The position numbers and the translations under genes were made by a program. Shown here in pieces: positions 14,239 through 50,657 of a stretch of DNA of 64,000 bases (the first letter of the stretch is position 1; every line of letters starts with the position of its first letter). This DNA is from an uncultured virus (IMG/VR IMGVR_UViG_3300030616_000820). Taxonomy: Duplodnaviria > Heunggongvirae > Uroviricota > Caudoviricetes. The notes under the pieces are model-generated. The model made no database searches. It was not told where the DNA came from and saw only the letters and a list, made by a program, of their open reading frames with translations. The stretch is taken from IMG/VR virus record IMGVR_UViG_3300030616_000820; one strand, given 5' to 3'.

Positions 14239-14544
14239 ATGAACAATAAAGCCGTATCTGCCGTTATTGGAGTTATAATGCTAATTGCTATAACAGTTGC
14301 AATTGCTGCAACAGTTTGGATTTATATAAATGAATTAGAAGACGAAAGATATGAGTACTACCTTTATAAAGATGGAAATTTCTATAAATGTTATAACTTT
14401 AAAGATGACAAATTTAAATTAAAAATAATATCTCCAGAAAATATAACAGGTGAAAAAGAAGTTAATTTTAAAGGCATTGTTGTATTTCCAGATGGAGATG
14501 AATATAAATTAACAAACTTTGAAGAAGGAATACATAAACGATGA
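14239..14544 (+). CDS. Archaeal type IV pilin (class III signal peptide, DUF1628-type)
   Basis: KA|VSAVIGVIMLIAITVAIAATV N-terminus; one N-I-T sequon. Confidence 0.85.
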   Translation: MNNKAVSAVIGVIMLIAITVAIAATVWIYINELEDERYEYYLYKDGNFYKCYNFKDDKFKLKIISPENITGEKEVNFKGIVVFPDGDEYKLTNFEEGIHKR

Positions 14545-15209
14545 AATTGTTAGTAGACTCTAGAGAAAAATACAAAATAACTTCATTCCGAAAATATATC
14601 AATAATGGTAGTTCTGACATCATAACTGATATAGAAATTGTAACATTAAATGCTGGGGATGCTGCAACACCCGACCTAGAACTTGGTTGGGAAAGAAAGG
14701 CAGAAGATTTTGTTCCTTCAATTTACTCTGACCAACTTGACAAACAGTTGACAGAATTGTCTGACAACTTTTCTCATCCTTATTTATTTATAGAATATGA
14801 AGGCATAATGGATTTAATAGAAAAACATCCACGAACAAATCCAGAAGTCATCATTGGGAAAATCTCGTCCATCCTAGCCAGACATAAAGTTACTGTTTGT
14901 TTTGTTGGTCAGTTCTATATACCCATAGTTGTACGCATGTGCGATAAGTTTTATGATTTAAACAACCCAACCAAAAGATATTCACCTATAAGAATGGGAA
15001 CAACAGTTAGAAGGAATGCAACACCAAAAGAAGTTAAACTTGACATTATATCAAGAATTCCAAAAGTAGGGGCAAAAAAAGGAAATAAACTATTAGAAAA
15101 ATTTGATAATTCAATTCAAAAAATATCTAATGCAACAATAGATGAATTAATAGAAGTAGATGGTATTGGAGAAAAGATGGCAAAATCAATAAAGGAGATA
15201 TTAAAATGA
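14541..15209 (+). CDS. ERCC4/XPF-family nuclease with HhH domain
   Basis: VDSRE, GD, ERK motifs; two HhH motifs (IPKVG, VDGIG). Confidence 0.9.
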   Translation: MKLLVDSREKYKITSFRKYINNGSSDIITDIEIVTLNAGDAATPDLELGWERKAEDFVPSIYSDQLDKQLTELSDNFSHPYLFIEYEGIMDLIEKHPRTNPEVIIGKISSILARHKVTVCFVGQFYIPIVVRMCDKFYDLNNPTKRYSPIRMGTTVRRNATPKEVKLDIISRIPKVGAKKGNKLLEKFDNSIQKISNATIDELIEVDGIGEKMAKSIKEILK

Positions 15210-15421
15210 TAATGACGTTGGCGTTTTTAGTTTCTGCAATACTTTTAATGTTGATTACTCTTATAGAAATAGGATTAGCTGGTGGTGTTAATGAAATGAC
15301 AATGCAATCATCATTACCTTGGTTAATTGCTGGTTGGTGTATATGGCTGGCTACATTTTATGCATACAGAAAATGGGGCAAAATAGAAGAATACGATGAC
15401 GGATATGATAGATACCTTTGA
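15206..15421 (+). CDS. Small membrane protein
   Basis: Two TM segments; ATGA overlap. Confidence 0.55.
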   Translation: MIMTLAFLVSAILLMLITLIEIGLAGGVNEMTMQSSLPWLIAGWCIWLATFYAYRKWGKIEEYDDGYDRYL

Positions 15422-15597
15422 TTTGATTATGACACTGGGGAAGATGGAGATTGGTGAGGAGAGGACAATAGGGAAACATAGGATAAAAAAAGTAAGTAAA
15501 TATACTTACAACTATGTTTGTCCCTGTTGTCGAGGAAAGGTTATATGCTATGGAAAAAATAGGTAAAATATAAACATAGTCTTTGGAGAGATAGGCT

Positions 15598-16434
15598 ATG
15601 CGACAAGAACATTTAATAAGTGTAATAATTCCAACAATAAACAGACCTGATAATTTACAAAGGGCAATAAAAACTGTATTCAATCAGATTTATCAAAACA
15701 TAGAAATTATTGTTGTGGATGATTCCAATAAAGAAAATTTACAATTAAATAAACAACATATTAAACTATTTTCTGACCCAAGAATAAAACATATGATTTG
15801 TAAAGATAAAAGCGGTCCTTCTTTTGCAATCAATAAAGGAATTAAAGAGGCAAAAGGAAATTTTATTGCATTACTTTATGATACAGACGAATGGCTTACA
15901 AACAAGTTAGAAAAACAATTAAAAGTTATGTTGGATAATCCAAACATTGGTTTAATTGTTTGTCATTCTTTAGATAAAAGGTTTAAAAAAGAAATTATAA
16001 GTCAACCAAAAGAAACAATAACATATACAGACTTATTAAAATCATTTCATTTATCATCAACATCTTCTTATTTTGTTAAAAAGGATGCCATTGAAAAAAT
16101 ACATGGTTTTGATACAGAATTACAATTTGAAGAAGAATATGATTTAGCAATAAGACTTTCAAAATATCATAACATAAAAACAGTTCCAGAAGTTTTGGTA
16201 ATCAGAAATGCCTTAGATGAAAGAGTTAAAAGACAATGGAATAAAAAAGTAAGGTCTGTTTTAACTATTTATAAAAAACACTATAAAGAATATAAAATAC
16301 TCGGAACACCAAGTATGCTTTTTAATCATTTTAAAGCAATAGGTTTATTGTTTACATTTTTCTTTGCATTTATTTTTCATAATAAAGTTTACAAAATTAT
16401 TAATCCAATAAAAAAGAGATATGAAGGTGGTTAG
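15598..16434 (+). CDS. Glycosyltransferase family 2
   Basis: SVIIPT, IIVVDDS, NKGI and GFD...EEYD motifs; DxD motif is degenerate (YDTD). Confidence 0.88.
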   Translation: MRQEHLISVIIPTINRPDNLQRAIKTVFNQIYQNIEIIVVDDSNKENLQLNKQHIKLFSDPRIKHMICKDKSGPSFAINKGIKEAKGNFIALLYDTDEWLTNKLEKQLKVMLDNPNIGLIVCHSLDKRFKKEIISQPKETITYTDLLKSFHLSSTSSYFVKKDAIEKIHGFDTELQFEEEYDLAIRLSKYHNIKTVPEVLVIRNALDERVKRQWNKKVRSVLTIYKKHYKEYKILGTPSMLFNHFKAIGLLFTFFFAFIFHNKVYKIINPIKKRYEGG

Positions 16435-19400
16435 TTGACTAGAAAAAGAATAAAAGATTCTTTAGATAAAAGTAAAAGGAAAGATAAGAAGGTTAGAAAA
16501 AAAGTAGATTTTGAAATTAAAAAGAATGCAACTTTAAACAACAAAATTATAATTATTGCATTAATTTCTTTTATCTGTTTAACTTTATATTTAAACACAT
16601 ACAATAATTATACATCTGGTGTTGGTATAAATGATAAAGGAGAAACATTGGGTGAGAAATATTATCTTGCAGGGCCAGACCCTTATTATCATGCAAGAAT
16701 AGCTGAAATTATTTATTATGAAGGTAGAGTTCCATTTATAGCAGAAGGAGAACCTGACCCAATGTTAAGTTATCCTTTACATTTACCAAATCCAAGGCCT
16801 CCTTTGTTTGATATTACTTTAGCAATGGGAGCACATGCTTTATCTCCATTTATGGAAGATATTGATGCTTTAGGTCATTCATTACAGTTTTTACCTGCAA
16901 TATATGGAGCACTTTTGGTAATACCTGTATATTTTATTGCTGCAACATTATTTAATAAAAAAATAGGATTACTTGCAGCATTATTTGTTCCGTTAATACC
17001 GATACATATTGGTTCTGGTCATGGTTCATCATATGCATTAGCTGACCATGATTCATTTATTTTATTGCTTTCTACTTGTGGAATATTTTTCTTTGTAAGA
17101 GCATTACAATTGTTAAATACGAAATATGAAGGATTAAAACAACTTATATTGTTAAACAAAAAGACAATAGTTTATGCAATGATTGCTGGGATATTTTATG
17201 GGATGATAGGATTAAGTTGGGAAGGATTTAGACTTTTTGTTGTTATCTTAGCATTTTATTGTATATTGCAATTTTTAATTAATTGTTATTTAAGAAGGGA
17301 TTTCTTAGGTTTGACTATGATTGGAGTTATATCTTTAAGTATGGTTGCTTTAATGATTTTACCTTATCATTTAATAAGAAACAATTTGAGAGATTTTATG
17401 CTTGTTTCTTCATTGGTTGCAATAGTTTTAATTGCAGGCATAGTGTTTCATTTGCTAAAAAAGCTACCTTCTGTAATAACAATACCTGCAATGTCAACTG
17501 TTGGTATTTGTTCTTTATTTTTAATAAATGCATATGAAATAGCACCAATGTATTCTTTTGTTGCGATGTTCTTTAGAGGTTCTATTTATACTGGCAAAGT
17601 ATCTTTAACCATTGCAGAAGCAGGAACTTTTCCATTAAGTCGTACTGTAATGTCTTTTGGTCCTATTTTATATTGGGTTGCTTGGTTTGGAATAGTTATT
17701 TTTATGGCTAGAACATTATTACATAAAAAAAATTTTATGTTATTTATTAGTGTGTATATAATGATAACATTTTATTTTACAATGACTGCTGGTCGTTTCC
17801 TAAACGATATTGTTCCTTTTGTTGCAATATTTGCAGGTTGGGGAGTATATTTTGTTTTAAAGAAAATAAATTATATTAAAATGTTTGAGAATATTAAGGC
17901 AATAGGTGGATTTCAAGGAATTAAAAAAGGAATAAAGGTTACTCATATTCTAGGTATTCTTTTTATAATTATGTTGGTGTTGCCAAATGCCATTATGTCT
18001 TTTGATGCATCTATACCTTATGAAAAAAAAGCAGAATATGGTAATGAAGATTTATTTGGAACTTTTGGTGTATCGTTTGGTAAAGAAACTTATTGGGTTG
18101 ATGCATTTAGTTGGTTAAATGAACAAGATACAGAATTAGCACCGGAAGATAGGCCTGCTTTTATTAGTTGGTGGGATTATGGTTTTTATTGTGTAATGAT
18201 TGGAGAACATCCTGCAGTTGCACATAACTTTCAAGGTGGCATACAGACAGCATCAAACTTTAAAACTGCTAAAAGTGAAAAGGAAGCAATAAGCGTTATA
18301 ATTTCTAGATTTTTATTTGCAGATTATCATCGCATAAATAATGGAAAAAAACTATCAGATGATGTTGTTTTAGTATTGGAAAAATATATAGGTGTTAATG
18401 AAACAAAGGATGTTAGTAAATGGCTAGCAGACCCAAAAACTTCTCCAGAATTTAATAAAGTTATATGTCCTGAATATGATTCTGCATTAGATAAAAAATA
18501 TAGGAAAGAAGAACCAGATGCATATGTTCATAGTTTTACAGCCATTACAGAAAATCTTACAGACGAAGAAGTTACAAATTTTTATTTAGAAATGCAAAAA
18601 GTTACTGGTTGGAATGTTAGATATTATGGTACAGAACAGTATGACACCCAAATTTTTACAGTTTTTACATTTCTTGCAGATAAAAGTTTGATACCATTGG
18701 GTGCTTTAGAAGATAAATATATGAAAGGATATTTAATTGCCACACATAAAGAAACAAAAGAAAAAACAATAATTTATGAAGATAAATATATAAATTTAAC
18801 AGATTATGATAGAGAGAATTATGCTTTTGCAGGTCCATATTATAATAGAAAATCTGCATATTATGAAACTTTATTTTATAGAGTTTATTATGGAACTCCT
18901 GTAGATGAAGGATTGCCATCTCAAAATGAAAGACTGCCTACATATGGATTAAAACATTTTGTTCCAAAGTATTTATCTCCTTATGTAGTAATAGCAAAAT
19001 ATTATGAGGGTGCAAAAATAAATGGAACAGTAACTTGTAATGGTGTTCCAATGAATGGCGTTTCAATTATTGTTTTTGATAGTATGGGAATACCACATGA
19101 TGTTGGAGTTTTATGGGATAATAAATATAATGTTATAGCTCCAGAAGGTAATTTATCTCTAAAGATTTTTATTCAAAATAAAGAAATAAATAAAAAAGAT
19201 ATTAAAATTACAGAATTAGAAGCAACAAGAAGAGCAGATAATTATAACAAAACAGTTAATTTTGAAGTAGAACCAATTACTATAAATGGCACTATAACAA
19301 AAAATCAAACAGTATTACCAAACATAAATGTTACTCTAGCAAGTCAACTTAGTGGAATGTTTACAAAAGTTTTAACAGATAAAAATGGTAGGTATGTTTT

Positions 19401-19515
19401 TAAAGATGTTCCCCCAAGTGTTTATAGTATAGAAGTAGAGCAAGACGGTAATGTTACATATGCAGAAACAGTAATAGTAACAGAAAATAAGTTATTAGAT
19501 ATAGAGGTTGATTAG
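16435..19515 (+). CDS. aglB: Oligosaccharyltransferase AglB/STT3
   Basis: DPYYH, ADHD, TIAE and WWDYG motifs; multi-TM N-terminal half; C-terminal beta-sandwich (carboxypeptidase-regulatory-like) domains. Confidence 0.95.
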   Translation: MTRKRIKDSLDKSKRKDKKVRKKVDFEIKKNATLNNKIIIIALISFICLTLYLNTYNNYTSGVGINDKGETLGEKYYLAGPDPYYHARIAEIIYYEGRVPFIAEGEPDPMLSYPLHLPNPRPPLFDITLAMGAHALSPFMEDIDALGHSLQFLPAIYGALLVIPVYFIAATLFNKKIGLLAALFVPLIPIHIGSGHGSSYALADHDSFILLLSTCGIFFFVRALQLLNTKYEGLKQLILLNKKTIVYAMIAGIFYGMIGLSWEGFRLFVVILAFYCILQFLINCYLRRDFLGLTMIGVISLSMVALMILPYHLIRNNLRDFMLVSSLVAIVLIAGIVFHLLKKLPSVITIPAMSTVGICSLFLINAYEIAPMYSFVAMFFRGSIYTGKVSLTIAEAGTFPLSRTVMSFGPILYWVAWFGIVIFMARTLLHKKNFMLFISVYIMITFYFTMTAGRFLNDIVPFVAIFAGWGVYFVLKKINYIKMFENIKAIGGFQGIKKGIKVTHILGILFIIMLVLPNAIMSFDASIPYEKKAEYGNEDLFGTFGVSFGKETYWVDAFSWLNEQDTELAPEDRPAFISWWDYGFYCVMIGEHPAVAHNFQGGIQTASNFKTAKSEKEAISVIISRFLFADYHRINNGKKLSDDVVLVLEKYIGVNETKDVSKWLADPKTSPEFNKVICPEYDSALDKKYRKEEPDAYVHSFTAITENLTDEEVTNFYLEMQKVTGWNVRYYGTEQYDTQIFTVFTFLADKSLIPLGALEDKYMKGYLIATHKETKEKTIIYEDKYINLTDYDRENYAFAGPYYNRKSAYYETLFYRVYYGTPVDEGLPSQNERLPTYGLKHFVPKYLSPYVVIAKYYEGAKINGTVTCNGVPMNGVSIIVFDSMGIPHDVGVLWDNKYNVIAPEGNLSLKIFIQNKEINKKDIKITELEATRRADNYNKTVNFEVEPITINGTITKNQTVLPNINVTLASQLSGMFTKVLTDKNGRYVFKDVPPSVYSIEVEQDGNVTYAETVIVTENKLLDIEVD

Positions 19516-19773
19516 ATGCATATTTGTTCTTCTTGTGGTGAAATGATTTTAGAAAATAAAAAGCATCTTGGAATATGCCCAAAATGTTCAAGAAATTCCT
19601 TAAAAGAAATTGTAGTGATTTGTCCAATATGTCATAGAAGATTGACCAATGGTTCGATAGTTGCTGTTGATACTGTTGGTTGGATTTGTAGTCACCCTAA
19701 ATTTGATGTTAAAATATATTTGGAGTTAAGAGATGAAAATATCAATAGTGACGACGACGAAGAGCAATATTAA
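19516..19773 (+). CDS. Double Zn-ribbon protein
   Basis: Three CxxC motifs plus CxH. Confidence 0.55.
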   Translation: MHICSSCGEMILENKKHLGICPKCSRNSLKEIVVICPICHRRLTNGSIVAVDTVGWICSHPKFDVKIYLELRDENINSDDDEEQY

Positions 19774-20482
19774 AAATGTATTAAGGCTCTGTAAAAGTCT
19801 TTATCCAAACTATAAAAATATTCATGAGTTTATATTAGTTGATGCTGGCACTCCAAATTTAGACGATAGTTCAAGTTACTTATTAGAATTTCCAAAAATA
19901 ATAGATGGGAAAGGAACAACTAGAGGAGAAGGAAAAAACATTGGAATTAAAAATGCAACAGGCAATGTAATTGTATTTTTGGATGATGATATAAAAGTTG
20001 ATTTATTTTGGTTAGTAGAACTTAAAAAGTCATTGAAACATTCAGATATTGTTGCAGGTTATTCTCCAAATCCATTGGGCAAAGACCTTGCAAGAGTTCC
20101 AATATATATAAAAGGGCAAGACGTTACTTACCCAACTTGTAATATCGCATATAAAAAAGAAGTTTTTAATAAAATAGGATTTTTTGATAAAAAGTTAGTT
20201 ACTGCAGAAGATGTAGATTTTAATTGTAGGTGTGTTAAAAAAGGATATACAATAAGTTATAATCCAAAGATGGTTGCATTTCATTATCATAGAATATCTT
20301 TTAGAGGATTTGCTAAACAAGCATTTTGGAATGGATATGGCAGAAAACAATTCAATAGATTACATCCAGAATTAAAAAAAGAACATCAACATGGATTTAA
20401 AACAAAAAATATTTTGAGACTTGGGTTTGGATTTTTAGGATATACTTTAGGTGATTTATTTAATGGAAATAGGGATACTTGA
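19733..20482 (+). CDS. Glycosyltransferase family 2
   Basis: VFLDDD, CNIAY, FDKKL-x-AEDVDF, QAFWNG. Confidence 0.9.
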   Translation: MKISIVTTTKSNIKNVLRLCKSLYPNYKNIHEFILVDAGTPNLDDSSSYLLEFPKIIDGKGTTRGEGKNIGIKNATGNVIVFLDDDIKVDLFWLVELKKSLKHSDIVAGYSPNPLGKDLARVPIYIKGQDVTYPTCNIAYKKEVFNKIGFFDKKLVTAEDVDFNCRCVKKGYTISYNPKMVAFHYHRISFRGFAKQAFWNGYGRKQFNRLHPELKKEHQHGFKTKNILRLGFGFLGYTLGDLFNGNRDT

Positions 20483-21311
20483 ATATCATTATCATTGGGA
20501 GTTTGTAGAAACTCTAAAAAAGATTTGTTCTAATCATAATGTAATAGTTTTTAAAGACCCAAAAACTGCAAAGATGAACACAGAACAATTAGATTTACTT
20601 TTTGTTAATACCATAAAGCCTTTGCCTTGGGACATGTGTAGGTGGTTTAATTTTAAGCCTAAATGCAAAACAATATTAACAATACATGAAGCAAATACAG
20701 ATTTTAAAACAATGAAATCTATTTTTAAGAAGTTTGATGCAATTAATATTCCTTATTTACCAATGAAGGATTATGTTTTAAAAGATAAAAACTACAAAGG
20801 GAAACTATTTACTTTACCATATGCAGTTCATGAAAAGAAATATCCAAACAAAAATGATATGTATGTTATACCAGGTAAAATAGAGAAATTTAGAAGAGAC
20901 TATGATTTTGTTTTTAATATGATTGATAATCATCCAAGAGAACAGAAATGGTGTTTTTTAGGAAATCCAATGGGAACATATGGTCATCAAGTAATGCTGA
21001 AATGCATTGATTATTTAGATAGAAAATATAAAATAGAATTTTATCCAGGATATGTTCCACAGAAAGAATATAATAAAATTTTAAAAGATTGTAAAGCAAT
21101 AATATCACCAATTAAAAATCCAACAGTTGGGACAAGTAGACTTTTTAAAGAAATTTATGGCAAAACAAAAGCATGTGGTGCTATTTTTGAATCAATTAAA
21201 TATGGTAAAGAATTAATTTGCACAGAAAAAATTGAACATAATTATAAAGATTATTTATTAAAAGATTGGAAAAAATATTTTAAAGAAGTAGTTTTGGAGG
21301 AGTTAAATTGA
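20451..21311 (+). CDS. Putative GT-B glycosyltransferase
   Basis: IPG...RRDY, E-x-YG-x-TK and C-terminal AIFESIKYG patterns; glycan-cluster context. Confidence 0.55.
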   Translation: MIYLMEIGILEYHYHWEFVETLKKICSNHNVIVFKDPKTAKMNTEQLDLLFVNTIKPLPWDMCRWFNFKPKCKTILTIHEANTDFKTMKSIFKKFDAINIPYLPMKDYVLKDKNYKGKLFTLPYAVHEKKYPNKNDMYVIPGKIEKFRRDYDFVFNMIDNHPREQKWCFLGNPMGTYGHQVMLKCIDYLDRKYKIEFYPGYVPQKEYNKILKDCKAIISPIKNPTVGTSRLFKEIYGKTKACGAIFESIKYGKELICTEKIEHNYKDYLLKDWKKYFKEVVLEELN

Positions 21312-22291
21312 CAAAAGAAAGAATTTTAATAACAGGAATTAGTGGGTTTATTGGAAATGAACTTGCTGAGAAAGCAGAAAAAGAAGGATATGAAGTTGCA
21401 GGAATAATAAGACAATCGTATAGATATAATGATGCAATAAATAGAATGAAAGGAAAAATAAAACTTTATGAGGGGTCATTAACAGACCCAGCAAAAATGG
21501 TTAATATAGTTACAGACTTTATGCCAGATTATGTTGCACATTTGGGTGCAATAACACCAGTAAGCTATTCTTTTGAACATCCTTGGGAAGTAATAAATAT
21601 AAATTTACTTGGGACAGTTAATTTAACAGAAGCATTAAAGAGGTTTTGTCCAAATTTAAAAAGATTTGTTTTTGCTTCATCTATGGAGACATATGGACAT
21701 CAACCAGAATATCATAAAAAGTTTAAACCATTTGATGAAGAAACTCCACAAATGGCAGCTTGTCCTTATGCTGTTGCAAAAATAGGTGCAGAAAAATATG
21801 TTAAATATCTTTATTATGCTTATAAGTTTCCAGGAGTTTCATTAAGACAGACAAATACATATGGACGAAGAGATAATGATTATTTTGTAGCAGAAGCATT
21901 TATAACACAAATGTTAAAAAACCCAGATGAAGTTAATTTTGGAAACCCTGAACCAGTACGAAACTTTTTGTACATTGATGACTTGGTTGACCTTTATTTA
22001 ACATTATTTAAATCCAAAAATAAGAAGATACTTGGAGAATCTTTTACAATTGGACCACCAAATGGAATTACTATTGGTCAACTTGCAGATTCAATTAAGT
22101 CAAAATTAAATTGGAAAGGCAAAATAAATTGGTATACAAGAGAAATTAGAGATGGAGAAATTTATTATTTAAATTCCAATAATAAAAAAATTACAGAAAT
22201 GACAGGATGGGAACCTAAAGTTGGTTTATCCGAAGGTTTAGATAAAACAATAGATTATTGGAGGAACAAACTGAATGTTAAAAACCGATAA
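21308..22291 (+). CDS. NDP-sugar 4,6-dehydratase/epimerase (extended SDR)
   Basis: TGISGFIG, SSMETYG and YAVAK (YxxxK). Confidence 0.92.
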   Translation: MTKERILITGISGFIGNELAEKAEKEGYEVAGIIRQSYRYNDAINRMKGKIKLYEGSLTDPAKMVNIVTDFMPDYVAHLGAITPVSYSFEHPWEVININLLGTVNLTEALKRFCPNLKRFVFASSMETYGHQPEYHKKFKPFDEETPQMAACPYAVAKIGAEKYVKYLYYAYKFPGVSLRQTNTYGRRDNDYFVAEAFITQMLKNPDEVNFGNPEPVRNFLYIDDLVDLYLTLFKSKNKKILGESFTIGPPNGITIGQLADSIKSKLNWKGKINWYTREIRDGEIYYLNSNNKKITEMTGWEPKVGLSEGLDKTIDYWRNKLNVKNR

Positions 22292-22616
22292 AACAATATT
22301 AAAATCAATTAAAAACCCATATGCAAGAAATTATACAATAAAGCATTATGTCCCAGAAATAACTTTTGAAGGCTCTGATAAAAAGCCAGACTTTGGAGAA
22401 CTAAGAATAGAGTTTGTTCCAAATGAATATTTAATAGAATTAAAATCTCTAAAGTATTATTTCTATCAGTTTAGAGGAAAGAGATGTTCCTATGAACGAT
22501 TTATAAATGTTGTTTTTGATGATATAGATGAAATTTATGACCCCATAGAATTAAAAATAACATTTAAGACTAGACCAAGAGGAGGAATTTCTAGTTATTT
22601 GGAAATTGAAAAATGA
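22275..22616 (+). CDS. QueF-like T-fold protein lacking the catalytic Cys
   Basis: PE-x-T...PDFG, ELKSLKYY, YE and PRGGI motifs align to QueF, but the C-P segment is replaced by EGSDKK. Confidence 0.8.
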   Translation: MLKTDKTILKSIKNPYARNYTIKHYVPEITFEGSDKKPDFGELRIEFVPNEYLIELKSLKYYFYQFRGKRCSYERFINVVFDDIDEIYDPIELKITFKTRPRGGISSYLEIEK

Positions 22617-23490: not shown

Positions 23491-24121
23491 AATAAAATAT
23501 CTGGGTTTAATTCCTGCTAGAGGTGGAAGCAAAAGAGTTCGAAGAAAGAACATTAGAATGATTAATGGCAAACCATTAATTTATTGGAGTATTAAATATG
23601 CAAAGGAATCAAAAAAATTAGATAAGGTTGTTGTTTCTACAGAAGATAATGAAATTAAAAAAGTTGCATTAGAATATGATGCAGAAGTTTTAGATAGACC
23701 AAATGAACTCGCAAAAGATAATGTTCCAGACCAACCAGTTTTAAAACATGCATTAGAAAATATTCCAGCAGAAAATATTGTTCTTTTAAGACCAACTTCT
23801 CCAATAAGAATATATGGAATTATAGATGCTTGTATTAAAATATATGAAAGAAAAAAACCAGATTCTTTTGTTGCGGGATTTATAAATAAAGAATATGAAG
23901 CATTTTCAAAACCATTTACTTATTCTCAAAAAGAAAAAGGTTGGTTTCAAAATAGTGGATGTTGTGAAATTCATAAAGCCGATGTAATTTTATCAGGCAA
24001 ACCATATGGAAAAAAACAATATAAATTTCTAGTTCCAGACTTTTATAATTATGAAATAGATAATGAAATAGAGTTAATAATGGTAGATTGTTTGATGAGA
24101 AGGTTGGTAGATTCAGAATGA
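23483..24121 (+). CDS. neuA: CMP-nonulosonate synthetase (NeuA family) 1
   Basis: IPARGGSKR-x-RKN, VSTED, PTSPIR, EID. Confidence 0.92.
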   Translation: MNKIKYLGLIPARGGSKRVRRKNIRMINGKPLIYWSIKYAKESKKLDKVVVSTEDNEIKKVALEYDAEVLDRPNELAKDNVPDQPVLKHALENIPAENIVLLRPTSPIRIYGIIDACIKIYERKKPDSFVAGFINKEYEAFSKPFTYSQKEKGWFQNSGCCEIHKADVILSGKPYGKKQYKFLVPDFYNYEIDNEIELIMVDCLMRRLVDSE

Positions 24122-26719: not shown

Positions 26720-26727
26720 ATTAAAAG

Positions 26728-42415: not shown

Positions 42416-42855
42416 TGGAAATTTTAGAATTTTTACAAAGTATGTCAATGATAATATTGCCAATGTATTTGGTTGTTTTAGTATTGTTTTTAATAAAAGA
42501 CTTTTCTGTAAAAAATGTAATGAATCCTTTAAAATCAATTAAGGGAACAATATGTACGGCAATTACTTTTACTATATGTTTTACTGTGGTCATTCTATCT
42601 TTGATTTCAATATATTCTGTTGCAATTATTTGGGAAAACTATGAAATAGAAGAAGGAGAAACGGTTGCTCCTTTAGTAAAAGAAGTTTGTTATTTTTCAG
42701 TTATATTCATATCACAATTAATAGGAGTTGTTTTAATAAATTTCTTTTGGAATAATATCTATCGGAAACAAATTATTCCTGGTGAAGGAACATTAAAAAA
42801 AAGAATAAAAAAAATATGGGGAGAGATAAAAAAAGATGTTAGAAGTAAAAGATAA
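42409..42855 (+). CDS. Membrane protein (3 TM)
   Basis: Three hydrophobic segments. Confidence 0.6.
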   Translation: MLVEILEFLQSMSMIILPMYLVVLVLFLIKDFSVKNVMNPLKSIKGTICTAITFTICFTVVILSLISIYSVAIIWENYEIEEGETVAPLVKEVCYFSVIFISQLIGVVLINFFWNNIYRKQIIPGEGTLKKRIKKIWGEIKKDVRSKR

Positions 42856-43780
42856 AACAATACTTGTTACCGGTGGTGCAGGTTTTATTGGAACTGCTAT
42901 TACAAAGCTATTGTTAGAAAAAGGAGCAAATGTAAGAACACTTGATTTGACAGATAAAGTAAATTTAATTGGTTATGATAATTTATCTGTCTATAAAGGT
43001 AGTGTAATGGATAATGATAATGTTACAATAGCAATTACTGGTTGTGATTATGTTGTTCATTTAGCTGCAATGCTTGGTGTTAAGAACACAGAAGAAAAAA
43101 GATTGAGAACATTAAATACAAATATACAGGGAATTAAAAATATTTTAGATGAATCAGTAAAGGCAAAGGTTAAGAAAATTATTTTTTCTTCATCTTCAGA
43201 AGTATATGGAGACCAACCAACACCAATTAAAGAAAATACACCATTAAATCCAAAGTCGATTTATGCAGTAACAAAGTTGGTTGGTGAAGAATATTTAAAA
43301 GCATACAAAAAAGTATATGGTCTTGATTATACTATTGTAAGATACTTTAATGCTTATGGGCCAAGACAAAAAAATAATTTTGCAATGAGTGGATTTATTG
43401 AACAAACCCTTAGAAATCAAAGTCCAACATTATATGGTAGTGGTAAACAAGTAAGGTCTTTTTGTTACATAGATGATATTGTTAATGGAACTTATTTAGC
43501 ACTTACAAATGAAAAAGCAAACTCTGGAATTTTTAATATAGGAAATCCAACAGAACCTATAACTATAGAAAAATTGGCTAAAAAAATAATATCTATTTAT
43601 GGGACAAAATTAAAACCAAAGCATATAAATTTAGATAAATCAGATAGAGATAAAAAAAGAGAAATTTATAACAGAATACCAGACATTTCAAAGGCAAAAA
43701 ATAAATTAAAATATAAACCTAAAATAAAGCTAGAAGATGGAATTAAAAAAACAATTAAATGGTGGGAAGGACAAATATGA
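42836..43780 (+). CDS. NAD-dependent NDP-sugar epimerase/dehydratase
   Basis: TGGAGFIG, SSSEVYG, YAVTK, RYFNAYGPRQ. Confidence 0.93.
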   Translation: MLEVKDKTILVTGGAGFIGTAITKLLLEKGANVRTLDLTDKVNLIGYDNLSVYKGSVMDNDNVTIAITGCDYVVHLAAMLGVKNTEEKRLRTLNTNIQGIKNILDESVKAKVKKIIFSSSSEVYGDQPTPIKENTPLNPKSIYAVTKLVGEEYLKAYKKVYGLDYTIVRYFNAYGPRQKNNFAMSGFIEQTLRNQSPTLYGSGKQVRSFCYIDDIVNGTYLALTNEKANSGIFNIGNPTEPITIEKLAKKIISIYGTKLKPKHINLDKSDRDKKREIYNRIPDISKAKNKLKYKPKIKLEDGIKKTIKWWEGQI

Positions 43781-44514
43781 ATATTGTTATTGTTGGTAAA
43801 GGACAAATCGGTAGTAATATTGAAAAAAAAATGAAGGAAAAAAATTTAGATAATATATACACAATAGATATTAATAAATCTAAAAAACCAAATTATTTAT
43901 CTTTAAGTGAATATTATAAAGATAGAGGGTTGGCAGATGTATATATTATATGTGTTTTAACTCAAAGTCAATTGATAGATGTAGCCAAACAAATAGAGCT
44001 AGATAATAAACCTTTAATAAGTATTGAAACTGCTTGTGACCCAGATTCATATGATAAAGTAAAACAAATAGTTAAAGACAAAGCAGATGTAATTGTATTT
44101 CAAGAAAGATGGAACCCAAATGATATGTTTCATTCAGTGTTTAATCAACCAAGAGTAATGGGTGGTGATTATGATAGAGGACGTGATTTTTATTGTAGAT
44201 ATATGATGTATGAAAATATTGTAGTTACCGACAAACCAGAGTTGGCTGTTTTATGTAAAGTTGTAGAGAATGCTTATAGATATATAGAAATAGCAATTGC
44301 AGAAGAATTAAAAATGTTGACTGATAAAGATTTTGATGAACTTAGAAGACTAATAAATACAAAATGGAACATAGATATAAAACAGGCAAGAAACGGCATT
44401 GGTGGGCATTGTTTACCTAAAGATGTGAAAATAGTGGATGGATATTTTAAAGACAACTTAATTTTTAAAACAGCAATGGAAATTGATAAAAAATATAAGG
44501 AGAAAGTAAAGTGA
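43759..44514 (+). CDS. Truncated UDP-sugar 6-dehydrogenase (WecC/UDPGDH family)
   Basis: GKGQIG, ER, KVVENAYR, GIGGHCLPKD; C-terminal UDP-binding domain absent. Confidence 0.8.
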   Translation: MVGRTNMNIVIVGKGQIGSNIEKKMKEKNLDNIYTIDINKSKKPNYLSLSEYYKDRGLADVYIICVLTQSQLIDVAKQIELDNKPLISIETACDPDSYDKVKQIVKDKADVIVFQERWNPNDMFHSVFNQPRVMGGDYDRGRDFYCRYMMYENIVVTDKPELAVLCKVVENAYRYIEIAIAEELKMLTDKDFDELRRLINTKWNIDIKQARNGIGGHCLPKDVKIVDGYFKDNLIFKTAMEIDKKYKEKVK

Positions 44515-44858
44515 AAGAGGAAAGATTTAAAGATTGGAAACTACCAAAATTTGATAGTAATGGTTGGACCATATATGGATGGAGATGCCAAAATCCTGAA
44601 GGATTAAAAATGGGTAATAAAGTAGACATTGGTTGTTTCACATATATGAATGCTAAATACGGAATAGAAATTGGGGATAATGTACAGATAGGTCCACATT
44701 GCACAATACATACCGACAATACAGAAAACGATACCCATGAAAAAATAATAATAGGTAAGAATTCTCTAATAGGTTCATATACTCTTATACTACCAGGAGC
44801 AATAATACCACCAAACAGTAAGATAAAAGCTAGGAGTATAATAAAAGGAAATAAATAA
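44511..44858 (+). CDS. Hexapeptide-repeat (LbH) acyltransferase
   Basis: IEIGDNVQIGPHC, IIGKNSLIG. Confidence 0.82.
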   Translation: MKEERFKDWKLPKFDSNGWTIYGWRCQNPEGLKMGNKVDIGCFTYMNAKYGIEIGDNVQIGPHCTIHTDNTENDTHEKIIIGKNSLIGSYTLILPGAIIPPNSKIKARSIIKGNK

Positions 44859-45875
44859 ATGACAATATTTTTTATTAATTCTCCTGCAGAAGCAATACAT
44901 AGTGCTTTACCAATGATAAAAGAAAAGAAAATAGATGACTTAACAATTGTTACAACTAAAGATATGAAACATTTTTTTGAACAAAAAACAAATGGTAAAG
45001 TTATAGTTCCGGAAGTTCATCCTAATCTCATAACAAAAAAAACAAAACGCAAATTAATTTCAAATGCAATTAAAAGCAAGTTTGAATATAAAAGACTTTT
45101 TAAAAACATAGAAAATGAGGAAATTTATTTATTCTTTACTTCTTGGTCAGTAGTTCATATGAGTTATGTTAAAAAGTTATCTAAAAAAAATAAAATATAT
45201 TTATGTCATGAAGATTATATAACAGGTATATATGATGAAAGTAAAAATATAAGTTCTTTTTTTATGAGATTGGCTGCAAAAATACTTTTAAACATAGATG
45301 TTAAAATACTTATTTGGGAAGGAACACCAGTATGGGAATTAAAAAAGAATTCGTTTCCAATGGAAATCATTTCTTATGATAAATTTAATAATAAGTTACC
45401 AAAAGAATTTATGGAAGATATAAAAGATATAAAAGATAAAGATATGCTTTTTTTAGCTGGATTTCTAGGAGAACAGTTTAATGTAGATTATGATGAAAGT
45501 AAAGAAAATATAGAATTTGTGAATGAATTGGTTGATATTTTTGATAATTTGTTTGGCAATAAATATGTTATAAAAGGACACCCAAGAGATGGAAAACTAT
45601 ATGGTAAAATGAAAGAATCTAAAAACATATTACCAGAACATTATCTAGCTGAAACATTGTTTGGTCATAAATGGAAATATATAATTGGTTTTAAAACAGA
45701 AGCATTGGCATCTGCAGCATTGCATACAAATGCAAAAGTAATATCTCTTATAAATTTATATGATTGGAATGATTATATTACTAAAAAATGGTATGTCAAT
45801 GTATTTAACAAAAGTAATGTTTTAATGCCAAAAACATTAGATGAATTTAAAGAAATGTTAGGTGTTGATAAATGA
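44859..45875 (+). CDS. Putative sialyl/nonulosonyl-transferase (GT-B, HP motif)
   Basis: YVIKGHPR, AE, VISL patterns as in bacterial sialyltransferase-like families; next to flippase. Confidence 0.6.
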   Translation: MTIFFINSPAEAIHSALPMIKEKKIDDLTIVTTKDMKHFFEQKTNGKVIVPEVHPNLITKKTKRKLISNAIKSKFEYKRLFKNIENEEIYLFFTSWSVVHMSYVKKLSKKNKIYLCHEDYITGIYDESKNISSFFMRLAAKILLNIDVKILIWEGTPVWELKKNSFPMEIISYDKFNNKLPKEFMEDIKDIKDKDMLFLAGFLGEQFNVDYDESKENIEFVNELVDIFDNLFGNKYVIKGHPRDGKLYGKMKESKNILPEHYLAETLFGHKWKYIIGFKTEALASAALHTNAKVISLINLYDWNDYITKKWYVNVFNKSNVLMPKTLDEFKEMLGVDK

Positions 45876-46873
45876 CTTTGTTTTTTGTAATTTCTCCGTA
45901 TGCAGTTACACATCAAGTTCTTCCATTGTTGAAAGAAAGAAAATTTCAAAAGTTAACAATTGTTACTACTGAAGGACTTGCACCATTTTTTAAAGGTCTA
46001 AACATTAAAACTATAACATCATCTGTTAATATAAATTTGTTTGATAGAAAATCAAAAAGGAAATTTCTATCTAACATAATAAAGGCAAATAAAGAATACA
46101 AACTTTTGTTTGAAGGATTAAACAATGAAGAAATCTATTTGTTTTTTTCTTCTTGGGCTGTGGTTTATTTTAGTTATATTGCAAAGTTATCAAAAAATAA
46201 CAGGATATATCTTTATGAAACTCCACAGTCAAAAGAAATTATTTACAAAAAAGCAAAAGGGGTCAGGGCATTTTTAATGAAACATATAGCAAAATTATTC
46301 TTAAAAGTTGATACAGAAATATATCATATGGGGATGACATTAGCATATGTTTTAAAAAGGGAATCTTATCCAATAAAAACTGTTACATATGATAAATTTA
46401 ATTCTAGTATATCTGATATTTTTATTGATGAGCCTAAACTTAAAGGTAAGGATATTTTATTTTTAGGTGAAGAAGTAGAAAACGAAGGTGCAAATTTAGA
46501 AGATGTAATAAAGACTACAAACTTTTTATATAATTTATTTAAAAAATATCATAAGGATTCATATGTCATAAAAGGTCATCCATATAATGGCATTATATAT
46601 GGTAAGATGTCTAATTCTAAAAGTATAATTTCAAATAAGTCAATAGCCGAGCCATTGTTAGGTCATAAGTGGAAATTTATAATTAGTTATTATTCTGAAT
46701 TTCTATTAACTGCAAAGAAGAATTCAAAGGCAAAAGTAATTTCATTGTTGTATTTATGGAAATGGAGAGATTTAAAAGAAAAAAAATATTGGGTGGATGT
46801 TTTTGGTAATGCTGATATTTTAATGCCAAAGTCATTATCAGAACTTGAGGAGATATTAATGAATGATTGCTAG
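45872..46873 (+). CDS. Putative sialyl/nonulosonyl-transferase, tandem paralog
   Basis: Shares NEEIYLFF-SW-VV, YDKFN, YVIKGHP, GHKWK, AKVISL and LMPK with 44859. Confidence 0.6.
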   Translation: MTLFFVISPYAVTHQVLPLLKERKFQKLTIVTTEGLAPFFKGLNIKTITSSVNINLFDRKSKRKFLSNIIKANKEYKLLFEGLNNEEIYLFFSSWAVVYFSYIAKLSKNNRIYLYETPQSKEIIYKKAKGVRAFLMKHIAKLFLKVDTEIYHMGMTLAYVLKRESYPIKTVTYDKFNSSISDIFIDEPKLKGKDILFLGEEVENEGANLEDVIKTTNFLYNLFKKYHKDSYVIKGHPYNGIIYGKMSNSKSIISNKSIAEPLLGHKWKFIISYYSEFLLTAKKNSKAKVISLLYLWKWRDLKEKKYWVDVFGNADILMPKSLSELEEILMNDC

Positions 46874-48395
46874 AAGGTCATTAATTATTGTAAGTACACA
46901 AATTCTTATTCGTTTTTTTGGTTGGATAGGATTATTTGTGTTAGCAAAATTATGGGGAGGTTTTGCACCTGAAGCACTTGGAACAATAGGTTTTGCTATG
47001 GCTTTTGTTGCTTTATTTACATTTATTGGTGATTTGGGTTTTTCTGCTGCACATATAAAAAGAATTTCAGAAGGCAAAGACTTAGGTGAATGTGTTGGAA
47101 CTTATTTTACAGTTAAATTTTTACTTGTTGGATTAATGTCATTAATACTTATTATATCAGTTCTTTTGGTTGAACATGACCCATTAATAAATACAGTTAT
47201 TTGGATTTTTATTGCATATTATATATTTACAAGTCTTTTACAGATACCCATATCTACATTTGAAGCAACAAAAAAGATAGTTAAAAGACAAATAACACTG
47301 ATAACAGAGAATTTAGTTAAAGTCCCTTTGTTTATTACTGTGGTTGTTATTGGTAGTGGATTGGTGGCATATTCTGTTGATAATGATAACTTGATTATAT
47401 TATTATCATCATCTTATGTATTAGGTATAATGTCTACTTTTATGGTTGGTCTTTGGTTGTTTAGAAAATATCCAATTAAAAAACCAAAGTGGTCGTTATT
47501 TAAAAGTTATTTTTCTTTTGCTTTGCCAGTAATGATGTTATCTCTTGTATCTGCTTTTTCTGTCAATACCGACAAAATAATGATAGGTTATTTTTGGGAT
47601 ACTATTGAAGTTGGATATTATTTTACTATGAAACAAATAACACATATCTTTCTTATATTATCTGGGTCAATTGGTATTGTTCTTTTTCCGACATTATCTA
47701 ATTATCATTCAAATAGCAATTATGAAAAAATAAGAAATACAACACATCTTGCAGAAAGATATATTTCTATGGTTTTAATTCCAATAGTAATTATTGTGGT
47801 AATATTTTCAAAAACAATAATAAATGTAATGTTAAATAATTCTTTTATCCCAGCATCTTCAGTTTTAATTGCTTTGATGATTCTTTGTTTTATAAGTAGC
47901 ATATCTGTTCCATATACTTGTCTTATTACAGGGATAAATAAACCTAGCATTGCTGCAAAGATAGGTGCTTTAATATGCTTTACAAATATAGGTTTAAATT
48001 TTTTATTGATACCCAAAGATGGTTTATTATCATATGTTGGAATTAATGGTGCATTGGCTGCTGCTATTGCAACTATTTTAGCCAATACTATTGGTTTTTT
48101 TGGTCTTAGGTTTTATGCAAAAAAGTTGACAGATATACATATTTTTAATAAACATATATTTCTGCAGTTGTTTGCTGGTTTTATTATGTTTTGCTTTCTT
48201 TTTGTTTTTAATTGGAAATTGTATATTATGTCTTGGTATGGTCTGTTTTTATTTTCATTTTTTGGTTTAATTATTTATTTATCAATATTATTTATTATAA
48301 AAGAATTTAGAAAAGAAGACTTTAATTTTTTCTTAGATTTGTTTCATCCTAAAGAGATGATTAAATATGTATCAGGAGAGATAAAAAACAAATGA
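46863..48395 (+). CDS. Flippase (Wzx/MOP superfamily, AglR-like)
   Basis: About 14 TM segments; DLGF, TDKIMIGYF, VGYY, LFPTLS, GALAAAIAT. Confidence 0.9.
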   Translation: MIARRSLIIVSTQILIRFFGWIGLFVLAKLWGGFAPEALGTIGFAMAFVALFTFIGDLGFSAAHIKRISEGKDLGECVGTYFTVKFLLVGLMSLILIISVLLVEHDPLINTVIWIFIAYYIFTSLLQIPISTFEATKKIVKRQITLITENLVKVPLFITVVVIGSGLVAYSVDNDNLIILLSSSYVLGIMSTFMVGLWLFRKYPIKKPKWSLFKSYFSFALPVMMLSLVSAFSVNTDKIMIGYFWDTIEVGYYFTMKQITHIFLILSGSIGIVLFPTLSNYHSNSNYEKIRNTTHLAERYISMVLIPIVIIVVIFSKTIINVMLNNSFIPASSVLIALMILCFISSISVPYTCLITGINKPSIAAKIGALICFTNIGLNFLLIPKDGLLSYVGINGALAAAIATILANTIGFFGLRFYAKKLTDIHIFNKHIFLQLFAGFIMFCFLFVFNWKLYIMSWYGLFLFSFFGLIIYLSILFIIKEFRKEDFNFFLDLFHPKEMIKYVSGEIKNK

Positions 48396-49267
48396 AATAT
48401 TATGTAGAACAATTTCCATTAGTATTTGAAAATAATCTATATAAATTAGATGGTAATGGTGTTCTTTTAACAAAAATACCATATAGCCAACAATATTATC
48501 CAAGTTTAGAATATATAACAGTGTATGCTTTAGAAAATATAGAAAATTATATGGATATAGATTGTAGGACTAAATTTTTAAATCAAGTTAATTGGCTTAT
48601 TAATAATATAAACGATAATGGTGTTTGGAAACAAAGATTTAAATTACCTTATTATAACTTTGAAGAATCTTGGATAAGTGGTATGGGGCAAGGCCTTGCT
48701 TTATCTGTATTAATTAGGGCATATCAAGTAACTGCAGATAATAAATATTTAAAAATTGCAAAACAAGCATTTAAACCATTTACAAAAAGAATCAAAGAAG
48801 GTGGAATATTATATATAGATTCAAAAAAGGATATTTGGATTGAAGAATGTTCTGTTTATCCACCACCACATACATTAAATACTTTTATTTATGCATTGTT
48901 TGGAATTTATGATTTATATAAAATAACAGGTAATGAAGAAGCAAAAGACCTATGGTTTGATGGTATAGAAACACTTAAAAAACATATTAAAAGATATGAT
49001 ACAGGTTATTGGTCTTATCATAATTTGTTAACAATGCATCCTGCAGAACAAATATTTCATGAAATACACATAGAACAATTAAATGCATTATATAAACTTA
49101 CAGAACATAAAATATTTAGGAAATATTCAGAAAAATTTCAGGAGTATTTAAATAAATCATCTTACATATACAAAGCGAAGGTAAAGAGAGGAATCGTTCA
49201 TTTTAAAACACATGGAACGATAGGTTTAGTTAAAAGATATATTGAAAAAAGAAGGTGGGAAGATTAA
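48392..49267 (+). CDS. D-glucuronyl C5-epimerase family protein
   Basis: WISGMGQG-x-ALS-x-L-x-RAY, WIEE, LN-x-FIYALFGIYD, YDTGYWS, H-x-x-H-x-EQL. Confidence 0.85.
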   Translation: MKYYVEQFPLVFENNLYKLDGNGVLLTKIPYSQQYYPSLEYITVYALENIENYMDIDCRTKFLNQVNWLINNINDNGVWKQRFKLPYYNFEESWISGMGQGLALSVLIRAYQVTADNKYLKIAKQAFKPFTKRIKEGGILYIDSKKDIWIEECSVYPPPHTLNTFIYALFGIYDLYKITGNEEAKDLWFDGIETLKKHIKRYDTGYWSYHNLLTMHPAEQIFHEIHIEQLNALYKLTEHKIFRKYSEKFQEYLNKSSYIYKAKVKRGIVHFKTHGTIGLVKRYIEKRRWED

Positions 49268-50141
49268 AAAGAAATTAAGGTTTGGTGGAATTTCCTTTGG
49301 TGGAAATTATCCACATGTGATTATATTTGGCAAAAAATACAAGACTGTTTTTGGTAGAGATAGAAAAAATAATGACTATAGGTTTGAAGTTAAAAAGAAA
49401 ACAAGGTGGGATTTTTTTTTAAAATACTTTTATTTTTTGTTTCCATTAATAGATGTTTTACAATATGTAACTTATAACCCACCACAATCAGTAAGTCATG
49501 CAGTTAAACCAGCAGTAGAAAAAACAGCAGAGGTTTCAGAGAGTATGGGTGGTTTTTATATTTCAGCTATTGGTGTGTTATTGGTAACTTTGCTATATAT
49601 GTTAACTTTCTTTTATCTTTATTATTACTTAATATTTAGAGGAGTTAGAACTTGGCATGGAACAGAGCATAAAGTAATAAGTGCAGCAGAAGAAAATGAT
49701 ATAGAGAATGCAAAAAAATATAATCCTATACATGAGAGATGTGGAGGAACACTACTGCCCACAATATTCCTTGGATATTTTATTTATATTTTTATTTATG
49801 CATATACAGGATTTCCCTTTGGAGAATTTACAATAGTTACTATACTTTTATTTTTAAATGTAAAGTTCTTTCATAAATATGACAAGTTTGGGATATGGTT
49901 TGGTAAAAAGTTTCAGAAGTATTTTTCCATTAGTGAACCAAGCGATTGGCAATTAAAAATTGGTCAGAAAGCAATGGGTAACTTGTTAAAGGCAGAAAAA
50001 GAAGAACAATATGAAACAGAAGGTAAAGTATTTGATATGAGCATAGGTAGAACAGGTAAGTTAACAAAGAAAGGATATATATTTCCAAGTATTCTTTTGG
50101 TAATACTCATTATGGTTATACTTGATATGATGGTGATTTAA
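49242..50141 (+). CDS. DUF1385 membrane protein
   Basis: GG at N-terminus, WHGTEHKVI, HERCG, Q-x-x-x-x-x-x-EP. Confidence 0.8.
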   Translation: MKKEGGKIKKKLRFGGISFGGNYPHVIIFGKKYKTVFGRDRKNNDYRFEVKKKTRWDFFLKYFYFLFPLIDVLQYVTYNPPQSVSHAVKPAVEKTAEVSESMGGFYISAIGVLLVTLLYMLTFFYLYYYLIFRGVRTWHGTEHKVISAAEENDIENAKKYNPIHERCGGTLLPTIFLGYFIYIFIYAYTGFPFGEFTIVTILLFLNVKFFHKYDKFGIWFGKKFQKYFSISEPSDWQLKIGQKAMGNLLKAEKEEQYETEGKVFDMSIGRTGKLTKKGYIFPSILLVILIMVILDMMVI

Positions 50142-50657
50142 ATGTCTGATTTATTTTATCTAAGAATAATATTAGCAATCATTTGGCTATCTGTTGCATC
50201 ATATCAAGACATTAAAACAAGATTGATACATAATTATATTTGGTATGCAATGTTTGGTTGGGGATTTCTGTTTTTACTTCTTGATATTTTTAATGATGAA
50301 ATTGAACTGGTAGGTATCTTTTTTATACTTATATTAATAATAGTATCAATAATAATATATAATGTATTTAATAAAGTTCAACCAGAATCCTTTGGTGGTG
50401 CAGATTTAAAAGCATTTATTTGTATTGCAATATTTTTACCAATACCATTTATTTTTGGTATGTTTCCGTTTTCATATCTTGTTATAGTTATTGCAGAATT
50501 GTTTGCATTTGCTTGGTATTTTCCTCAAGCAGTTAAATTACCAAAAGATGAATGGAATACAATAAAATTCCCACTTATCCCATTTTTACTTTTTGGTGTT
50601 TTATTTACATTTGGGGTTTGTTTATTAGAAATTAATGGAGGTGGACTATGGATTTAA
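50142..50657 (+). CDS. Prepilin peptidase (A24; PibD/FlaK-like)
   Basis: ASYQDIKTR and FGGADLK catalytic aspartates; PLIPFL; multi-TM. Confidence 0.88.
   Translation: MSDLFYLRIILAIIWLSVASYQDIKTRLIHNYIWYAMFGWGFLFLLLDIFNDEIELVGIFFILILIIVSIIIYNVFNKVQPESFGGADLKAFICIAIFLPIPFIFGMFPFSYLVIVIAELFAFAWYFPQAVKLPKDEWNTIKFPLIPFLLFGVLFTFGVCLLEINGGGLWI

Follow-up and report, generated by a model that had tools for sequence, protein, structure and literature searches.

An oligosaccharyltransferase gene and a long glycan locus on a virus-like element of archaea

Genes of the aglB locus

The stretch of DNA analysed here (the window) comprises 64 kb of a 121,009-nt contig recorded as an uncultured virus, IMGVR_UViG_3300030616_000820, and carries a gene for the archaeal oligosaccharyltransferase (OST) AglB followed by a long run of sugar and glycan genes. 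The window probably represents about half of a virus-like, autonomously replicating element of ~120 kb from Thermoprofundales-type (MBG-D) archaea, belonging to an undescribed family with contigs of 100–270 kb in which a fixed aglB and a variable sugar locus would write the element's own glycotype. All genes lie on one strand, plus-strand open reading frames (ORFs) cover 94.5% of the window, and from 15598 to 51179 every gap between ORFs is 30 nt or less. Window proteins were scanned against Pfam (n = 93), NCBIfam (n = 54) and PHROGs (n = 60), and comparisons with hosts used 197 genomes of the class of G003, hereafter the host-class genomes. The glycan run starts at 15598, since a pilin gene considered below sits between the primase and XPF nuclease genes, and has the following content:

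15598..16434, plus strand: GT2 glycosyltransferase (Pfam; 51% to a host chromosomal GT2)
16435..19515, plus strand: AglB/STT3 oligosaccharyltransferase with STT3 and AglB core domains (Pfam)
19733..22291, plus strand: GT2 (19733), an unclassified candidate glycosyltransferase (20451) and an NDP-sugar 4,6-dehydratase, a trio conserved behind aglB in the related loci L044–L046
22275..22616, plus strand: QueF-like protein, not a glycan gene (Pfam, NCBIfam)
part of 22606..31936, plus strand: NeuB (22606), NeuA (23483), methyltransferases, class III aminotransferase, phosphatase and radical SAM protein (Pfam, NCBIfam)
part of 22606..31936, plus strand: PF01973 protein (27848), NeuA-like protein (28705), NeuB with SAF domain (29360), kinase-like protein and CysH (31280)
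part of 31953..44858, plus strand: PseC (above cut-off), PseH-like GNAT, two formyltransferases, PIG-L deacetylase and methyltransferase
part of 31953..44858, plus strand: short NeuB (36361), WbuX amidotransferase (above cut-off), B12 radical SAM protein, NeuA (39569) and cupin
part of 31953..44858, plus strand: NeuC-like protein (40513), DegT aminotransferase, epimerase, short dehydrogenase and hexapeptide acetyltransferase
44859..46873, plus strand: two paralogous GT38/GT52-like nonulosonyl transferases (HP motif)
46863..48395, plus strand: Wzx/MOP-type flippase (Pfam; 46% to a host flippase; 63–76% DNA identity to host-class genes)
48392..49267, plus strand: D-glucuronyl C5-epimerase-like protein (Pfam; 44% to a host gene)

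The window AglB aligns with A. fulgidus AglB (3waj) through DPYYH at 82, DHD at 204, TIAE at 392, R454 and WWDYG at 579, and so combines the membrane domain, catalytic Asp, DxD/H, TIxE, Arg and WWDYG of an STT3 protein. With the aligned residues assumed to hold the corresponding catalytic roles, the protein is, judged by this alignment, intact in its catalytic motifs, and the AglB with WWDYG and DPYYH given in a preliminary description of this DNA is confirmed at 16435–19515. Ten of the 12 N-x-S/T sequons of AglB itself fall within residues 655–1006, and the outer domain carries 10 sequons in ~370 residues against ~1.5 expected at the window rate.

Glycosyltransferases (six candidates), flippase and OST occur together in the window, and the gene list of the preliminary description stands in full, namely two GT2s, the flippase, three NeuB, three NeuA or NeuA-like proteins, a NeuC-like protein and two HP-motif transferases. 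Each step towards a nonulosonic acid of the Pse/Leg type (dehydratase, aminotransferase, acyltransferase, hydrolase, synthase, CMP-synthetase) has a candidate, mostly under cut-off; among the sugar-related genes only PseC, WbuX and CysH exceed NCBIfam cut-offs, while NeuB, NeuA and NeuC fall under the equivalog cut-offs. By its atlas match (score 0.97; PF07388 on 31–72% of cluster members), the HP-motif protein 44859 is similar to GT38/GT52 (poly)sialyltransferases, and 45872 is its paralogue, one host protein being matched by both. Candidate glycosyltransferase 20451 has no family match and is 33% identical to a protein of a host glycan cluster, and the PF01973 protein 27848, a family now named MptE-like in Pfam, is presumably Maf-like. 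Identity of the cargo to host glycan clusters is 68% for NeuB, 55% for PseC, 51% for GT2, 46% for the flippase, 44% for the C5-epimerase and 39% for the GT38-like protein. QueF (22275), CysH (31280) and a DUF1385 protein are the non-glycan genes of the run. A 148-aa membrane protein at 42409–42855 is 38% identical to the product of a gene in the glycan run of the related locus L091, despite the different cargo there. Two of the NeuBs (22606 and 36361) are without a SAF domain, and the available part of PMC8208679 describes such NeuBs as common in environmental sets.

The element family and its conserved gene order

The position of aglB is best appreciated from the genes that precede it:

9954..10928, plus strand: conserved backbone protein with an acidic tail (orthologues 34–67% identical in L042/L043, L044 and L091)
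10938..12065, plus strand: AAA_24/Sak4-like ATPase, a family marker (Pfam AAA_24 under cut-off; 183 relatives)
12318..13139, plus strand: divergent PCNA sliding clamp (Foldseek to PCNA, E 3.5e-8)
13147..14115, plus strand: AEP primase (PHROG primase, E 4e-6; invariant DxD, GxKGFH and four C-terminal Cys)
14541..15209, plus strand: XPF/ERCC4 nuclease, the last conserved gene ahead of aglB

The 9954 protein has no family match and, by its position and look, may be similar to a single-stranded DNA-binding protein. Its structure model (pLDDT 60) confirms the clamp, with the PCNA fold at 8–15% identity. PHROG matches of the primase are weak, and the protein is probably a PriS fused to a Cys-rich PriL-like C-terminus.

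An AglB search returned 439 relatives, 120 of which were listed, and a FastTree of 157 rows resolved two element clades. Clade 1 consists of the window protein and four proteins at 53–55% identity, and clade 2 of 32 proteins of ~1000 aa, nine of them on contigs of 64–135 kb, including lengths of 100,995, 123,277, 129,852 and 135,095 nt; neither contains a sequence from a metagenome-assembled genome (MAG). Element AglBs are ~1000–1030 aa long against mostly 1150–1440 aa in hosts, and 34 of the 37 in the two clades keep the catalytic patterns, the remaining three each lacking one pattern only. Locus DNA was compared for seven members, L044–L046 of clade 1 and L042, L043, L091 and L109 of clade 2, where L042 and L043 are identical in sequence and L045 and L046 are without upstream DNA. 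The order clamp, primase, XPF, aglB recurs in all five loci that have upstream DNA (four independent), each with at least four of genes 9954, 10938, 12318, 13147 and 14541 in the same order before aglB; this order was found at none of 63 other AglB loci with at least 3 kb upstream. Five of the 32 clade-2 AglBs share an identical contig size with a relative of the marker ATPase (120 of 183 relatives listed), and 10 of the 120 listed lie on contigs of 100–271 kb. In IMG/VR, single-sequence scans with AglB and the ATPase returned nothing and alignment-based scans returned only L042/L043.

Sugar genes follow aglB in every element locus examined, and their content varies. The window and L044–L046 have the GT2, 20451 and the dehydratase in common, and L045 and L046 carry nonulosonate genes in a different order (NeuA/NeuB or NeuA/PF01973). 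Behind aglB in L043/G002 are a GHMP kinase, SIS isomerase, nucleotidyltransferase, transaldolase and epimerases, which we read as a heptose-type set, and L091 and L109 carry epimerases, GT2s, GAPDH, LicD and a sulfotransferase or FkbM methyltransferase. The preliminary description missed that aglB belongs to the core genes of the element family and is followed by a variable glycan locus. Virus-style replication genes were found on both sides as described there, clamp and primase on the left and the small and large RFC subunits on the right; an accidental interruption of a replication set by the glycan block was not borne out, as aglB behind XPF is the conserved layout.

Other features of the window accompany this arrangement:

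14239..14544, plus strand: short class III (type IV) pilin with one sequon (Pilin_N 29.2 against a cut-off of 25.2; TIGR02537 above cut-off)
50142..50657, plus strand: A24 prepilin peptidase (passes the Pfam cut-off)
50648..50914, plus strand: 88-aa two-helix membrane protein, an element-family marker (70 relatives)
51368..52006, plus strand: tyrosine-recombinase-like protein (PHROG integrase, E 6.5e-6; Pfam weak)
52604..54648, plus strand: RFC small subunit, split across two ORFs with a 4-nt overlap (each ORF holds part of an intein; HNH in the first one)
61294..62307, plus strand: RFC large-subunit-like protein (PHROGs/NCBIfam)

Pilin and peptidase had been proposed to bracket the glycan block. 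Both genes pass their cut-offs, but the sequon of the pilin is explicable by chance (probability 25–34%) and the pair does not hold as a unit: the pilin lies inside the replication block between primase and XPF, where L042, L044, L091 and L109 have no pilin-like gene, and by this comparison it is a lineage-specific insertion. The two genes are 35 kb apart, no pilus assembly ATPase or membrane platform was matched in the window (Pfam), and homologues of the peptidase occur in five of five host genomes tried. It is plausible that the pilin is an AglB substrate. The gene for the 88-aa protein directly precedes aglB in clade 2, yet lies 31 kb past aglB in the window; the protein belongs to no Pfam family and has matches, all marginal, in 4 of the 197 host-class genomes. 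Considered as a possible capsid protein (spindle-type, two-helix) or OST subunit, it gave no fold match above background; a predicted complex with AglB scored 0.01, which carries no weight either way. In the RFC small subunit, the first ORF contains the intein N-part and HNH, and the C-part in the second ORF begins with an ATG; the arrangement resembles a natural split intein, the alternative being a frameshift. Two small overlapping ORFs at 7023–7600 have no family match, 7268 being 41% identical to a host protein, and bring to mind what we take to be an antitoxin/RelE-type pair. A 132-nt direct repeat (98% identity) at 1–132 and 1867–1998, the extreme start of the window, may reflect a duplication or the end of an assembly; tandem repeats in the window are weak arrays of 2–3 copies, with no perfect arrays.

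Nature of the element, its host and the origin of aglB

The 64-kb window contains no tRNA and no Rfam match, rRNA included, and none of its 93 Pfam-scanned proteins matches a ribosomal or aminoacyl-tRNA-synthetase family, so that, within the window, housekeeping genes are absent as first described and the flanks hold no cellular marker. The element ATPase was found in none of the 197 host-class genomes, the clamp in one and the primase in two. Taken on its own, the window scores as an extrachromosomal replicon, with its own replication genes, without core cellular markers and absent from host chromosomes, and the near absence of its markers from the host class supports the earlier proposal of an extrachromosomal virus-like element. 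A primase scan of GTDB contigs gave eight weak deltaproteobacterial matches (21–32%) and missed G055, which indicates that pattern scans, including the marker-gene scan of hosts, are of limited sensitivity. G055:C23, the clamp match, is a 20-kb contig whose element-type primase (57% to L042) and clamp (39% to L042) run into chromosomal HMG-CoA synthase, thiolase and RNase Z genes, with no tRNA at the junction.

The many host-like genes would fit a reduced chromosome of an archaeon, an island in a chromosome or a chimeric join, and so would a solitary ribosomal L29-like gene directly ahead of aglB in the close relative L044 (L044:9596-9817; Pfam 34.3 against a cut-off of 24.5), which is 37% identical to Thermoplasmata L29 and absent from the window. 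A chimeric join, raised as a possibility in the preliminary description, is unlikely because L044 spans and keeps the left junction at 55–79% identity. This junction is conserved across independent contigs, guanine-plus-cytosine (GC) content is flat at 25–31% throughout, tRNA, rRNA and ribosomal genes are lacking, the marker genes are absent or nearly so from the host-class genomes and the AglB clades are free of MAG sequence. These explanations are largely refuted and now very improbable. GC at third codon positions is 14.6% in the 15598–51179 run against 17.4% and 18.6% in its flanks.

It is quite possible, if short of probable, that the element is a true virus, enveloped or spindle-shaped, whose system glycosylates mainly virion proteins; this is a sharper form of the explanation favoured above and differs from it as to what the element is and what it modifies. 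The single-strand, densely coding layout, the phage-type exonuclease, helicase and clamp loader, and four DNA methyltransferase genes (within 397–1450 and 56395–59496) are in keeping with it. So are QueF in the window and FolE with a TGT-like gene in L091 (L091:961-2897), genes whose presence makes 7-deazaguanine DNA modification in the family possible. Two relatives are IMG/VR records, and the relative G001 has a PAV1 ORF375-like ATPase beside membrane-protein genes, while another contig of 59,411 nt carries both the PAV1-like and the marker ATPase. SSV1 and HRPV-1 bear glycosylated proteins, as stated in the part of PMC10384203 available. However, no HK97 capsid or head, portal, terminase or tail family was found among 60 window proteins (PHROGs), and no head, portal, terminase or tail among 30 proteins of G001 and G002, with Terminase_6N in neither of two fragments, all of these sequences, the window included, being incomplete. 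None of the 68 matches listed for the PAV1-like ATPase lies on a 121,009-nt contig, no further PAV1 gene was matched, and the ATPase also occurs in 12 of the 197 host genomes, where the copies inspected form small islands. Its value as a virus hallmark is weakened accordingly, the inspected host copies lying in two-gene islands (L156, L157, L160 and L161, on the chromosomes of G060, G061 and G099), where the ATPase and a neighbour are 49–51% identical to G001. The membrane-protein gene run of G001 that ends in this ATPase (L124:4298-9569) has a similar run in G024:C156 and recalls the PAV1 order by eye, with the sequence match confined to the ATPase. G034:C4 (L163–L166), an 80-kb virus-like contig of 28% GC from the bin of a host-class MAG, has polymerase-like, reductase-like and amidoligase-like ORFs by eye; it was not used as a relative, sharing only a distant primase (26%) and XPF (31%).

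Alternatively, the element may be a capsid-less, megaplasmid-like replicon that remodels the host surface for aggregation, phage resistance or contact for transfer, a proposal that we consider doubtful although well worth keeping in view. It fits the want of virion genes among the window and G001/G002 proteins, family contigs that vary from 100 to 271 kb, the single family sequence in the IMG/VR scans, and the ParB-like, integrase-like, pilin and peptidase genes of the window. No Orc/Cdc6 or Rep match was found in the window (Pfam), and a complete divergent replisome with a single-strand layout is more typical of large viruses, which counts against a megaplasmid. A plasmid of Methanosarcina does carry an AglB, as reported in the accessible portion of 10.64898/2026.10.06.756670.

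Thermoprofundales-type (MBG-D) archaea are the likely host. The nearest named AglBs among the matches listed come from Thermoplasmata MAGs, among them JdFR-43 and HyVt, which the available part of PMC9585477 uses to designate subgroups of Thermoprofundales, and 36 of 41 AglB loci were assigned to Thermoplasmatota or similar, one being labelled Deltaproteobacteria. AglB is present in 190 and NeuB in 53 of the 197 host-class genomes. In a 29-row IQ-TREE analysis, clade 1 falls outside and clade 2 inside the sampled host AglBs, with the same topology under LG+G4 and a quick posterior mean site frequency (PMSF) run. A tree joining both element clades was rejected (approximately unbiased test, p = 0.008 under LG+G4, on a row subset and with groups named after the tree was seen). 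On these trees aglB was likely captured twice from Thermoprofundales-like hosts, or replaced in place. A bolder formulation, which we advance tentatively, is that these are 100–270 kb Thermoprofundales viruses in which the OST is a core gene captured at least twice from hosts, with a hypervariable glycan locus and an N-glycan type of their own on virion and host surface proteins.

A proposed element-encoded glycotype

In the mechanism favoured here, the long operon would be expressed and would convert host UDP-sugars into CMP-activated nonulosonic acids decorated with N-acyl, amidino and methyl groups. The GT2s and GT38/52-like enzymes would assemble a glycan on the host lipid carrier, the flippase would turn the lipid-linked glycan outward, and the element AglB would transfer it to N-x-S/T sites of membrane-exported proteins. 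We infer this sequence of expression, nonulosonate synthesis, assembly, flipping and transfer from the gene content. Targets would be surface or particle proteins encoded by the element and, unavoidably, host S-layer and pili, and the changed glycotype may serve receptor recognition or masking and the exclusion of competitors. Because hosts already have an AglB, the element AglB likely accepts the element's own, non-host glycan; keeping a second AglB with its own sugar locus seems best explained by a need to transfer such a glycan. Alternatively, the PF01973 and GT38-like enzymes could place the nonulosonates on an O-linked or polymeric glycan, and AglB would only increase the transfer of the glycan of the host. 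Families like bacterial polysialyltransferases are the nearest to 44859, the C5-epimerase suggests a uronic-acid polymer, and hosts keep aglB apart from glycan clusters (5 of 116 other loci have any glycan-gene match). Separate products nevertheless seem unlikely, given that aglB and the flippase share a single operon-like run, that sugar genes follow aglB in every element locus examined and that legionaminic acid occurs in an archaeal N-glycan (PMC6137143, available in part).

Several observations weigh against an element-specific glycotype on a virus-like replicon, beginning with the missing capsid, portal, terminase and tail families noted above. The loci of relatives end 3–10 kb past aglB, so that the flippase is confirmed for the window only, and nonulosonate genes are confirmed for the window and, as NeuA/NeuB or NeuA/PF01973, in L045 and L046 only. 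The NeuC-like protein is short (281 aa) and below the NCBIfam cut-off, and NeuB 29360 has Thr where aligned PseI has a conserved His (EKT against EKH). PseB and PseG were not identified among the window proteins (Pfam and NCBIfam), nor were dolichol or prenyl carrier synthesis and GlmU/GlmS among the 93. The near-complete system of the preliminary description is supported for the late machinery (AglB, glycosyltransferases, flippase), and its suggestion of glycosylation independent of the host was too strong. The host junction in G055:C23 is a single MAG contig of a smaller, AglB-less relative and possibly misassembled. No CRISPR spacer link was found when window DNA (1–19600 and 44500–64000) was searched against the 197 genomes with only two candidates per genome scored, the seven short high-identity matches fetched lying outside arrays.

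Virus-encoded synthesis and transfer of sugars is known from chloroviruses, Mimiviridae and serotype-converting phages, and we know of no STT3-type transferase in giant eukaryotic viruses or serotype-converting phages. AglB had no match in 50,697 GenBank phage records. The following sources were each available in part. In chromosomal agl loci of Haloferax volcanii and Halorubrum lacusprofundi, AglB likewise stands with glycosyltransferases, epimerases and a flippase (PMC10384203), and the Thermoprofundales host glycan clusters of G061, G066 and G037 have nonulosonate genes close to those of the element. In contrast to these chromosomal clusters, the element's set lies on an extrachromosomal replicon with a shorter AglB from MAG-free clades and keeps aglB beside the glycan genes, which hosts do not. 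Plasmid P2 of Methanosarcina also has a mobile AglB distinct from the chromosomal copy, so that a mobile aglB is not unprecedented; P2 is, however, a single case of an orc-type plasmid, with no flippase or sugar pathway mentioned in the preprint text available, from which the word 'glycosyl' is absent (10.64898/2026.10.06.756670), whereas here aglB is a conserved family gene alongside a virus-like replisome. STIV (A197), His1, NSV and pR1SE encode glycosyltransferases thought to alter glycosylation (PMC10384203), but these are few and rely on host AglB. Borgs of Methanoperedens are likewise large and low in GC, and they have cell-decoration genes and a virus-like mode of replication (PMC11208441, PMC9879509). 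The present element is much smaller (121-kb contig), with no perfect tandem-repeat arrays and with Thermoplasmata affinities, and does not qualify as a Borg; the Borg papers mention glycosyltransferases, and 'oligosaccharyl' and 'STT3' are absent from the main text of PMC11208441. PAV1-like spindle-shaped viruses resemble relative G001 in the ORF375-like ATPase next to membrane-protein genes, and PAV1 differs in its 18-kb size, in giving no capsid match and in an ATPase not listed for the window's contig. A few archaeal viruses encode glycosyltransferases and their use of host machinery is mostly unknown, with the question of whether they can bypass host N-glycosylation stated to be open (PMC10384203); AglB is not mentioned in the available portions of PMC13502194 and PMC13452462. 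No virus-encoded AglB/STT3, no virus or element family with AglB, flippase and sugar pathway, and no description of this element family was found in the literature, where supplementary gene tables of Borg, plasmid or virome papers could list such genes. There is a fair chance that this is the first viral N-glycosylation system.

N-glycosylation by AglB/STT3 is usually viewed as a cellular function that viruses borrow. If the proposed mechanism is correct, an abundant sediment archaeon can have its surface glycotype determined by mobile DNA, and the elements would provide a route for the spread of aglB genes and archaeal glycan diversity. They would also give biochemists dozens of divergent transferases and enzymes of nonulosonate synthesis to work with. 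The family also supplies marker genes for a mobilome of which no description was found in the literature. Were the element a virus, its glycan locus would be a viral counterpart of serotype loci.

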